Shown piece by piece: positions 1-1,996 of a DNA stretch of 1,996 bases (within the stretch, counting starts at the first letter, position 1; the number at the start of each line of letters is the position of its first letter). This DNA is from Escherichia coli (GTDB lineage: Bacteria > Pseudomonadota > Gammaproteobacteria > Enterobacterales > Enterobacteriaceae). The notes under the pieces were generated by a model. That model was not told the origin of the DNA. It worked only from the letters and a program-made list of their open reading frames with translations, and ran no database searches. The DNA lies in assembly GCF_003334405.1 (NCBI RefSeq), contig NZ_QOWM01000041.1; one strand, 5' to 3'. The translations under genes were made by a program, and so were the position numbers.

Positions 1-810
1 AACCAGATGGACCCGGTGTACACGCCGGCGCGAAAAATCCACCTGTACCACTGCGACCATCGCGGCCTGCCGCTGGCGCTTGTCAGCACGGAAGGGGCAA
101 CAGAATGGTGCGCAGAATACGATGAATGGGGCAACCTGCTGAATGAAGAGAACCCGCATCAGCTGCAGCAGCTTATCCGCCTGCCGGGGCAGCAGTATGA
201 TGAGGAGTCCGGCCTGTATTACAACCGCCACCGCTATTATGACCCGCTGCAGGGGAGGTATATCACTCAGGATCCGATTGGGCTGAAGGGGGGATGGAAT
301 TTTTATCAGTATCCGCTGAATCCGGTTCAGTATATAGATTCAATGGGACTGGCATCAAAATATGGACACTTAAATAATGGCGGATATGGAGCGAGACCCA
401 ACAAACCGCCTACGCCCGATCCAAGTAAATTGCCGGACATAGCGAAACAATTAAGACTGCCATATCCTATTGACCAGGCCAGTAGTGCGCCTAATGTTTT
501 CAAAACATTCTTCAGAGCATTAAGCCCTTACGACTACACACTGTATTGCAGGAAGTGGGTAAAACCAAATCTGACTTGTACGCCACAGGATGATTCCCAG
601 TATCCAGGGATGGATACAAAGACAGCAAGTGATTACCTGCCACAGACAAATTGGCCAACAACTCAATTACCACCAGGATATACTTGTGCAGAACCCTATT
701 TATTCCCAGACATTAATAAACCCGATGGGCCAGCAACAGCAGGGATAGATGATTTGGGTGAAATTTTAGCTAAGATGAAACAGAGAACATCGAGAGGAAT
801 AAGAAAATGA
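1..810 (+). CDS. ybfO: Rhs-family protein, 3' portion only (5'-partial; reading frame is open from base 1, so the ATG at 7 is an internal Met). Contains the end of the RHS repeat-associated core and a 152-aa variable C-terminal (CT) toxin domain of unknown activity; possibly an orphan Rhs core-CT fragment
   Basis: Translation carries the hallmark end-of-core motifs of Rhs proteins: [76 protein letters not shown] is at nt 226-246, DPIGL at 271-285 and the terminal DSMGL at 337-351. Composition switches from GC-rich to AT-rich at about nt 290-350, as expected at an Rhs core/CT junction. Stop TGA at 808-810. The symbol is from memory of the K-12 RhsC-region gene order and was not verified by search. 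Confidence 0.9.
223..351 (+). other. Rhs core/CT boundary: putative aspartyl-protease autoprocessing region ([21 protein letters not shown] ... [10 protein letters not shown]), with predicted release of the CT domain after Leu115 (nt 349-351)
   Basis: Seen in sequence: two D-x-x-G-L motifs 22 residues apart, DPIGL (aa 89-93 of the ORF-track numbering) and DSMGL (aa 111-115). Established knowledge: in Rhs and Tc-toxin RHS cages a PxxxxDPxGL motif marks the C-terminal autoproteolysis site, and the variable toxin domain starts immediately after it. The conserved Pro is replaced by Ser here. Confidence 0.7.
352..810 (+). other. Variable C-terminal (CT) toxin domain of the Rhs protein, 152 aa, Pro-rich, 3 Cys, no motif I can assign to a known toxin family
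   Basis: Sequence downstream of the DSMGL motif is AT-rich and shows none of the core consensus, as expected for a polymorphic-toxin tip. I could not find HNH-type, PD-(D/E)xK-type or deaminase-type motifs by eye. Confidence 0.6.
792..798 (+). promoter_or_regulatory. Shine-Dalgarno (GAGAGGA) for the immunity gene, lying inside the 3' end of the Rhs CT coding sequence; indicates translational coupling
   Basis: Purine-rich GAGG/AGGA core with an 8-nt spacer to ATG 807; start and stop codons overlap. Confidence 0.55.
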
Positions 811-863
811 AAAGAGTTTTGTTCTTTTTGCTGATGATATTTGTTAGTTTTGGTGTTATAGCT
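807..863 (+). other. Signal peptide of the putative immunity protein (aa 1-19, predicted SPase I cleavage after VIA)
   Basis: KR at positions 2-3, then a 13-residue hydrophobic stretch [13 protein letters not shown], then small residues at -3 and -1 (V-I-A). Not a canonical lipobox because Asp sits at -1 relative to Cys21. Confidence 0.6.
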
Positions 864-1376
864 GATTGCGAAATACAAGCTAAAGATCATGATTGTTTTA
901 CTATTTTCGCTAAGGGTACTATTTTTTCCGCGTTTCCTGTCTTAAATAATAAAGCCATGTGGAGATGGTATCAGAATGAGGACATCGGTGAGTATTATTG
1001 GCAAACAGAACTGGGTACATGTAAAAATAATAAATTCACACCAAGCGGGGCGAGACTCTTAATTCGCGTCGGGTCACTACGCCTTAATGAAAATCATGCC
1101 ATCAAAGGAACGTTGCAGGAGTTGATAAATACAGCAGAAAAAACGGCGTTTCTCGGCGATCGGTTTAGAAGTTATATAAGAGCGGGTATCTATCAAAAAA
1201 AGAGCAGTGATCCAGTTCAGTTGTTGGCAGTCCTTGATAATTCAATCATGGTAAAATATTTTAAAGATGAGAAACCAACTTATGCTCGAATGACAGCACA
1301 TCTCCCGAACAAAAATGAGTCTTACGAATGTTTAATAAAGATACAGCATGAACTAATTCGTAGTGAAGAGAAATAA
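807..1376 (+). CDS. ybfC: Putative Rhs immunity protein, 189 aa, with a predicted Sec signal peptide (exported, probably periplasmic)
   Basis: ORF starts at ATG 807 and overlaps the upstream stop by 4 bp (ATGA at 807-810), with a GAGAGGA Shine-Dalgarno 8 nt upstream. This is the classic position of an immunity gene directly 3' of an Rhs CT. N-terminus [19 protein letters not shown]|DC has a basic n-region, hydrophobic core and V-I-A cleavage site; the mature part has 4 Cys. AT-rich like the CT it follows. Stop TAA at 1374-1376. The symbol is from memory of an E. coli K-12 189-aa secreted protein and was not verified. Confidence 0.8.
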
Positions 1377-1458
1377 AATCTCTTCCTGAGAAAACAAATT
1401 AATCATTGTGAAAAATTATATAACTCATGGAATAGGTGTTTATTTTGCGTTCCATTTG

Positions 1459-1616
1459 CAGGGAAAGATCACGTAACGCTACTTTTTTGTACTAAATAAT
1501 TCGAATTTTAAGTTCAACAATTGAGATACTACTTATTGTCTAAAGCTGTTTTTCATAGCTTATACATGATCAAATACTCCTTACATAAATAAGGTGAACA
1601 AATGGAACTTAAAAAA
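1459..1616 (+). repeat. Direct repeat copy 1 (pairs with 1839-1996; period 380 bp)
   Basis: Hand alignment at offset 380: 150 of 158 identical. All 8 mismatches fall at 1504, 1511, 1515, 1518, 1529, 1531, 1538 and 1539. Confidence 0.9.
1591..1596 (+). promoter_or_regulatory. Shine-Dalgarno (AAGGTG) for the H-rpt transposase ORF; an identical site recurs at 1971-1976
   Basis: AAGGTG with a 5-nt spacer before ATG 1602. Confidence 0.5.
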
Positions 1617-1856
1617 TTGATGGAACATATTTCTATTACACCCGATTACAGACAAGCCTGGAAAGTGGTGCATAAATTGTCAGATATTCTACTGTTGACT
1701 ATTTGTGCCGTTATTTCTGGTGCAGAAGGTTGGGAAGATATAGAGGATTTCGGGGAAACACATCTCGATTTTTTGAAGCAATATGGTGATTTTGAAAATG
1801 GTATTCCTGTTCACGATACCATTGCCAGAGTTGTATCCCAGGGAAAGATCACGTAA
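1602..1856 (+). pseudogene. ybfQ: Truncated H-repeat-associated (ISAs1-family) transposase, N-terminal fragment (84 aa); the last 5 codons (QGKIT) and the stop come from the repeat junction
   Basis: AAGGTG Shine-Dalgarno at 1591-1596 and ATG at 1602. Homologous sequence ends at codon 79 (nt 1838), exactly where the second copy of the upstream leader begins; the frame then reads into that leader and stops at TAA 1854-1856. Full-length proteins of this family are several-fold longer. The symbol is from memory and was not verified. Confidence 0.75.
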
Positions 1857-1996
1857 CGCTACTTTTTTGTACTAAATAATTCGCATTTTATGTTTAAAAA
1901 TTGAGATATTCCTTATTACCTAAAGCTGTTTTTCATAGCTTATACATGATCAAATACTCCTTACATAAATAAGGTGAACAAATGGAACTTAAAAAA
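1839..1996 (+). mobile_element. Second H-rpt copy, 5' end (leader plus start of transposase ORF), continuing beyond the window
   Basis: 150 of 158 positions identical to 1459-1616, including the SD and ATG, with the last 76 bp identical. Confidence 0.75.
1839..1996 (+). repeat. Direct repeat copy 2 (pairs with 1459-1616); truncated by the window end
   Basis: Same alignment as copy 1. The repeat is still perfectly matching at the last base of the window, so it almost certainly extends further. Confidence 0.9.
1982..1996 (+). CDS. ybfL: Start of the next H-repeat-associated transposase ORF (MELKK...), 3'-partial, runs off the window
   Basis: ATGGAACTTAAAAAA at 1982-1996 is identical to the start of the 1602 ORF and is preceded by the same SD (AAGGTG at 1971-1976). 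Only 5 codons are visible, so whether it is intact cannot be judged. The symbol is from memory only. Confidence 0.5.

Follow-up and report, generated by a model that had tools for sequence, protein, structure and literature searches.

A private 36-bp tract in a truncated H-rpt fragment of the Escherichia coli RhsC locus is probably a recombination mosaic

The window analyzed here, a stretch of 1,996 bases, is 100% identical to many Escherichia coli chromosomes, K-12-derived ones included, and corresponds to the 3' portion of RhsC in E. coli K-12. In J53, a K-12 derivative (locus L001), the genes are arranged in the order rhsC, ybfB, partial rhsO/ybfO, ybfC, three ISAs1-family pseudogenes, ybgA, and phrB. 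The pseudogenes are ybfQ, an unnamed gene with an internal stop that corresponds to K-12 ybfL, and ybfD. Features of the window are listed in Table 1.

Table 1. Features of the window, with the basis of each assignment.
Feature	Position	Strand	Basis or remark
rhsO/ybfO 3' end, orphan Rhs core/tip	7-810	+	ORF list; RefSeq (J53): partial RHS repeat-associated core domain protein
ybfC, small ORF 3' of the Rhs tip	807-1376	+	ORF list; RefSeq annotation of J53
Unique AT-rich spacer, ybfC to H-rptC1 left end	1377-1458	.	Left junction common to the single H-rpt of TC24
H-rptC1 (ybfQ), truncated and non-functional: first 380 bp of ISAs1-family H-rpt/ISEc1	1459-1838	+	Repeat and BLAST analysis
H-rptC1 left inverted repeat CAGGGAAAGATCACGTAA	1459-1476		
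Patch of eight C1-private substitutions, element positions 46-81	1504-1539	.	Copy comparison, population counts
TTTTCA-17-AATACT, ybfQ promoter hexamers proposed in the literature	1550-1578	+	PMC3946193; outside the patch; same in C1 and C2
ybfQ ORF, 84 aa, ISAs1 transposase N-terminal fragment	1602-1856	+	ORF list; NF033564; annotated pseudogene
H-rptC2 (ybfL), first 158 bp, then window end	1839-1996	+	Full length of 1,291 bp in the genome

Repeat and BLAST analysis of the J53 locus revealed three H-rpt pieces, C1 to C3, arranged head to tail downstream of ybfC. C2 is a complete element of 1,291 bp with 18-bp terminal inverted repeats; its ends, CAGGGAAAGATCACGTAA and TTTCGTAATCTTTCCCTG, are complementary at 16 of 18 positions. 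C3 lacks the first 25 bp and carries an internal deletion. C1 retains only the left end and 380 bp, and is thus a fragment, an incomplete member of the ISAs1 family. The ybfQ ORF crosses the C1/C2 junction, and its stop falls within the left inverted repeat of C2. The canonical version of the patch lies at 1884-1919 in C2, whose ORF starts at 1982. Intact copies for comparison, H-rptB (yhhI) and H-rptE (ydcC), were taken from MG1655. The H-rptB ORF scored 412.4 bits against NF033564, the NCBIfam model for ISAs1 transposases (cut-off 70). The ybfQ stump matched model positions 1-51 only and, being a fragment, scored below this cut-off at 65.1 bits.

Transposition of H-rpt has never been observed, according to the literature (PMC3032704). 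The element in the window is already known: it consists of the H-rpt/ISEc1 remnants of RhsC, and the original naming of the copies as H-rpt was correct. The correspondence to this Rhs-associated, ISAs1-family element of E. coli extends to the identity of the window with K-12-type RhsC, the 1,291-bp size, the terminal inverted repeats, and the ISAs1 transposase, and no difference was found at the level of the element. The H-rpt of RhsC was reportedly described by Zhao et al. (J Bacteriol, 1993), with H-rptC1, H-rptC2, and H-rptC3 corresponding to ybfQ, ybfL, and ybfD, respectively. The sole additions made here to the known H-rpt are the private, diverged 36-bp tract of C1 and a private tract of C2 at element positions 181-260. 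C1 is a dead stump, not an active element. In E. coli MIN9 (L005, 2248-2945), an IS1 is inserted within the C1 patch, splitting it, which fits a dispensable fragment.

To compare the two copies, positions 1459-1616 were aligned with 1839-1996 at an offset of 380. The original prediction had placed eight mismatches at 1504, 1511, 1515, 1518, 1529, 1531, 1538, and 1539, and we found them exactly there. The identical left flank of 45 bp (1459-1503) and the presence of TTGAGA at 1521-1526 in both copies were likewise correct. The right flank, given as 76 bp, is really 77 bp in the window (1540-1616), where it is ended by copy 2 leaving the window; in the full locus, the identical right-hand flank is 99 bp.

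The accompanying claim that all differences between the copies fall in the patch does not hold as stated, as 13 more lie past base 1996, but the clustering itself is non-random. Specifically, the full 380-bp overlap of C1 and C2 in J53 contains 21 differences: eight at element positions 46-81, none at 82-180, and 13 at 181-362. The C2 partner of this last set lies beyond base 1996, so the appearance that all differences cluster is an artefact of the window edge. Within the window, all eight differences fall in 36 of 158 nt (P ~1e-4). Over the full overlap, the probability of at least 8 of 21 differences falling in 36 of 380 nt was 0.0135, and for the changes private to C1, 8 of 11 in 36 of 380 nt, it was ~3e-5. 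The patch is a real cluster that was overstated by the window edge, and it serves as a caution that such an edge can make a mosaic look like a single patch containing every difference.

The patch is identical in C2, C3, H-rptB, H-rptE, and the copy of strain TC24; all eight differences are private to C1. The differences between C1 and C2 in the coding region are mostly private to C2, including the TAA stop that disrupts ybfL. Among 5,426 E. coli genomes, 2,670 had the C1 patch, at 2,676 places in all (median, one per genome), and 4,947 had the canonical patch, at 17,681 places (median, four). The ybfC-C1 junction was present at an identity of at least 99% in 2,659 records. Based on these counts and junction records, the C1 haplotype is an allele of a single locus and not a second element family.

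Alignment of many copies had been suggested as a check of whether the variants segregate as a block. Using a 76-nt query of the C1 type and the best place per genome in the same 5,426 genomes, we found that they do. The best matches were bimodal: identity was at least 99% in 2,601 genomes and 80-90% in 2,673, with only 72 genomes in between (61 at 95-99% and 11 at 90-95%). The patch is thus a linked block, bounded by identity, that segregates as a unit. The C1 tract marks the K-12-type C1-C2-C3 array stably and in single copy, which makes it useful in read mapping and RhsC typing.

Artificial chimeras of the C1 and C2 patches were used as queries to search the E. coli genomes for recombinants. 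An exact haplotype with C1 alleles on the left and C2 alleles on the right occurred in two genomes, and the exact reverse in two. Some 14 further genomes were within one to three mismatches of a chimeric query, for a total of ~18. Denoting C1 alleles as 1 and C2 alleles as 2, the patch read 1111|2222 in LD93-1, 2222|1111 in both EC2 and ws5-3, and 11111121, with one site changed, in CRE1540. All four of these fetched recombinants are at the C1 locus, with ybfQ intact and with the C1 structure and all downstream C1 alleles retained; that is, the switch points are contiguous and the copy structure is unchanged. The four patterns reflect the conversion of C1 by canonical copies over tracts of roughly 11-120 bp. 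Accordingly, the contiguous half-patch chimeras at C1 establish that short gene-conversion tracts occur at this exact spot. Viewed base by base in 5,426 genomes, the tandem H-rpt remnants of RhsC prove to be mosaics, with exchanged tracts as short as 11-120 bp. Beyond such bookkeeping, the importance of the patch is small.

Patchy gene conversion between H-rpt copies, one of the two explanations originally offered, best fits the evidence of block behaviour and half-patch chimeras. We consider it probable, with some reservation, that the patch is a recombination mosaic in a dead insertion-sequence fragment. Ectopic gene conversion and mosaicism are known among bacterial repeat copies, including IS copies, rrn operons, tuf genes, and Rhs cores. 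The C1 tract resembles these cases in that long identity is broken by a short block of linked variants and rare recombinants switch contiguously. It differs in that conversion is seen directly only for the later, partial overwriting and is deduced for the origin of the tract. In the history we propose, C1 and C2 would have come to be identical at element positions 1-45 and 82-180, with a 22%-diverged tract at 46-81 in C1 alone among the sampled copies, in one of two ways. In the first, gene conversion would have copied a short tract into C1 from a divergent H-rpt lineage that is no longer sampled. In the second, C1 would itself be the relic of a divergent H-rpt lineage, its flanks having been homogenised against C2. 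Telling the two forms apart would require a donor. In either form, the tract would then have been fixed at the C1 locus in E. coli lineages with the C1-C2-C3 array, which make up about half of the sequenced genomes; canonical copies occasionally overwrite part of it. The C1 tract is probably neutral.

Comparisons with other copies bear on the origin of the tract. Relative to ten other copies, C1 differed at 7-10 of 36 positions in the patch, 0-10 of 45 in the left flank, and 0-7 of 100 in the right flank. Relative to C2, its flanks differed at 0 of 45 and 0 of 99 positions, and the two share private alleles there. In an alignment of ~24 H-rpt leaders, E. whittamii, strain MOD1-EC7003, a plasmid copy, and other old lineages had 1515C as their common state. 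1518C, 1529C, 1538G, and 1539T each occurred singly in some other H-rpt lineage, and 1504A, 1511A, and 1531A were found in C1 only. Such single recurrences of two to five C1 alleles in older H-rpt lineages of Escherichia point tentatively to a divergent source, whether a donor or an unconverted relic.

C2 carries a private cluster of its own at element positions 181-260 (L001, 8019-8098, beyond the window), which includes the TAA stop at 195. In this segment, C2 and the TC24 copy differ from every other H-rpt at 9-13 of 80 positions. Thus, mosaicism is general in the C1-C2-C3 array, which is a mosaic with a complex history. C1 and C2 each carry one hyper-diverged tract. E. coli TC24 has one full-length, C2-like H-rpt (L004, 3630-4920) with the same left junction and neither C1 nor C3. 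In this strain, ~400 bp that are absent from K-12 precede ybgA (L004, 4920-5300). The TC24 state is possibly an older arrangement of the locus.

Searches for a donor covered the 5,426 E. coli genomes, 72,556 plasmids, 100,044 species-representative genomes, and metagenomes. Outside the C1 locus, no copy in these collections carried more than two to three of the eight alleles, and no identifiable donor of the tract was found. In the E. coli genomes, the exact C1 patch occurred at the C1 locus only. A degenerate-pattern scan of the 100,044 species-representative genomes yielded 16 matches; it demanded an exact match at the 34 non-variable bases, such that divergent donors could be missed. Among these 16, E. 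whittamii and MOD1-EC7003 provided the copies unlike K-12, which shared at most two C1 alleles; the full C1 haplotype was present only in K-12-like contaminant contigs in MAGs. The plasmids yielded 24 records, and the C1 type was absent outside chromosome-like records. The metagenome scan returned 52 contigs; every one had the full haplotype, and the ybfC junction was present in 50. Two metagenome contigs with the patch elsewhere, L059 and L083, were considered as donors and rejected: they are joined within stretches common to the copies, either 22 bp of the left inverted repeat or the 99-bp identical run. Moreover, the locus flanking the patch in L083 has the canonical patch in all 866 complete genomes that possess it. 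Both contigs are best read as assembly chimeras.

Several diverged or misplaced H-rpt sequences were noted during these searches. On the IncX4 plasmid p194195_1 (L021, 401-600), an independent H-rpt lineage is also more diverged from C2 in the patch (7 of 36) than in the flanks (3 of 45 and 7 of 100), and its changes are mostly not at the positions changed in C1. A far more diverged left-end remnant of H-rpt, CAGGAAAAGCATCACGTGATG...TTCGCGCTAATGTTCAATAG..., is present at the yafV-side Rhs locus (L083, 1-270, minus strand; L089, 1801-2068), showing that E. coli once harboured older H-rpt lineages. Finally, MAGs labelled Candidatus Nanosynbacter, Flavobacterium psychrophilum, and Bacillota (L006, L009-L011, L019) contain the H-rpt of K-12-type RhsC, RhsB, or RhsE at identity, most likely through contamination of the bins by E. 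coli.

A single clustered mutation event would produce the same block pattern, which counts against the recombination reading. Under this explanation, which we hold to be rather unlikely, a multi-nucleotide mutation arose in the non-functional C1 stump and was fixed by drift; an error-prone repair patch or template switching at a quasi-palindrome are possible causes. It is favoured by the failure to find a donor anywhere, by the three alleles unique to C1, and by the behaviour of the eight variants as one block. Template-switch mutagenesis leaves a signature in which imperfect inverted repeats are made perfect; for quasi-palindromes, there is reportedly a model by Ripley and work in E. coli by the Lovett laboratory. 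Two features of C1 resemble this signature. First, 1511A and 1515C change TTTTATGTTT to TTTTAAGTTC (1506-1515), a perfect 10-nt inverted repeat of GAACTTAAAA at 1605-1614. Second, 1518C, 1538G, and 1539T make a local ACAAT/ATTGT stem of 5 bp (1517-1521 with 1535-1539).

However, template switching accounts for at most two to five of the eight changes, and it must skip the adjacent, uncorrected mismatches at 1503 and 1505. Nor does the stabilisation go beyond chance: when eight substitutions were placed in the patch at random, 5% of the sets stabilised the fold to the same extent. We estimate the 10-mer match to be near what the searched sequence would yield by chance. In 36 kb of K-12 sequence, there was no ectopic template of at least 11 nt, and the 10-mers were limited to the complement at the ORF start and one unrelated match. 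A clustered mutation of any cause is also at odds with the states of the new bases, five of the eight matching those in other H-rpt lineages, which is above the expectation for random mutation.

The second explanation originally offered was that the patch is a functional site, either a promoter or a transposase-binding region. This was not supported: tests of promoters and RNA structure gave results no better than chance, the patch is as variable as other parts of the leader, and the copy is dead. In its broadest form, this explanation holds that the patch is a functional leader segment, such as a UP element, a site for transposase or a host factor, or a segment that pairs with the ORF and thereby blocks translation, and that the C1 version was selected through expression of ybfQ or read-through expression of C2. 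We judge it improbable.

A default promoter scan detected no sigma-70-like site in the leader of C1 or C2. The best PWM pair in the leader, TTGTAC-16-TA[A/T]GTT, includes site 1511 and scored 5.8 in C1 and 6.8 in C2. Overall, the best scores of promoter-like sites in the leaders were 5.8-7.7, relative to a median best score of 7.4 in shuffled sequence, and none of the sites outperformed shuffled sequence. In the PWM scan, TTGAGA (1521-1526) paired only with AAAGCT and had no usable -10 partner. Thus, the patch yielded no sigma-70 hexamers at a spacing of 16-18 bp that scored above chance.

Published genomic SELEX data place an RpoD-holoenzyme site in the ybfC>ybfQ spacer, with the hexamers TTTTCA-17-AATACT, and the same listing has no site for yhhI, ydcC, ybfL, or ybfD (PMC3946193). 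No other promoter for ybfQ has been proposed in print. The regulatory explanation draws on this restriction of the site to ybfQ among the H-rpt genes. Moreover, the patch would be at about -46 to -81 with respect to the proposed -10 (1573-1578), in the zone of UP elements and activators. The hexamers themselves, at 1550-1555 and 1573-1578, are downstream of the patch and have a low PWM score of 3.2. The method uses RNAP in vitro and has a resolution of 200-300 bp, and a better site occurs on the minus strand of the unique spacer. This site, TAAACA-16-TATAAT (1442-1415; L001, 7442-7415), is the best sigma-70-like match of the region at 10 of 12 positions; it lies between ybfC and C1 and points back to ybfC. 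It could be the source of the published RNAP SELEX peak.

Whether the patch is special relative to the rest of the leader was evaluated from the proportion of variable columns in ~17 non-C1 lineages. Patch and flanks were alike: the value was 0.28 in the patch and 0.30 and 0.32 in its flanks, which the original prediction counts as a refutation of a special site. A subterminal transposase site was also sought and rejected. There was no convincing repeat of the patch in the right end of the element, where the homology of the inverted repeats stops at 18 bp; the best other match was a gapped one of 19 columns.

The structure of the leader RNA was analyzed by prediction. The C1-specific TTTTAAGTTC is the perfect complement of codons 2-4 of ybfQ, and the 141-nt leader of C1 is predicted to fold at -22.0 kcal/mol (z = -2.2), with 1501-1515 paired with codons 2-6. 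This predicted fold is stronger than those of C2 and H-rptB (-16.6 and -17.8 kcal/mol, respectively), in line with a regulatory role, but the gain was not significant on randomisation (P ~0.05). Local folds of 77 nt of the leader had z ~0, and Rfam returned no match at E<=1. Covariation was not detected, as 1515C occurs with 1538A in many lineages. The leader thus has neither a match to a known RNA family nor an above-shuffle fold with covariation, the features expected of a structured cis-regulatory RNA.

In IS10 and IS50, fold-back structures inhibit the translation of transposase from read-through transcripts. The predicted pairing of the C1 leader with the start of the transposase ORF is similar. 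It differs in that it occurs only in the dead C1 and not in the intact canonical copies, lacks support from covariation, and is a prediction only. Immediately outside the left end of C1, 16 nt (1443-1458, TTTTGCGTTCCATTTG) are 88% complementary to the RBS-ATG region at 1599-1614 (CAAATGGAACTTAAAA), which we estimate to be about the chance level for a 2-kb, AT-rich window.

Two further considerations oppose a regulatory role: the product is an 84-aa transposase stump, and strains exist in which half of the patch has been lost by conversion. No positive evidence of regulation by the patch emerged. A more specific proposal, which we regard as very improbable, is that element positions 46-81 are an exchangeable regulatory cassette, acting as an upstream promoter element or as a leader that pairs with the first codons, and that the C1 version was selected for silencing translation of the ybfQ stump through its 10-nt complement to codons 2-4, or for altering read-through into ybfL. 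Lineages could carry differing versions of such a cassette, as in C1, p194195_1, and the yafV-side remnant. If true, the regulatory explanation would provide a first handle on the control of expression in the poorly studied ISAs1 family; nothing found here supports it.

That independent neutral substitutions clustered by chance, or that the pattern is an artefact of sequencing or assembly, has almost no plausibility left and is effectively refuted: the window end did exaggerate the pattern, with 13 more differences beyond it, but scan statistics gave P values from 3e-5 to 0.0135, and more than 2,600 complete genomes that are independent of one another, together with 52 metagenome contigs, carry the identical haplotype.

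A terminator-like hairpin, TCGGGGAAACACATCTCGA, was observed inside the transposase ORF at 1750-1768 of the window and at 8130-8148 of L001. In C1, the hairpin is followed by TTTTTT, and in C2, the same stem is followed by TTTCTT.
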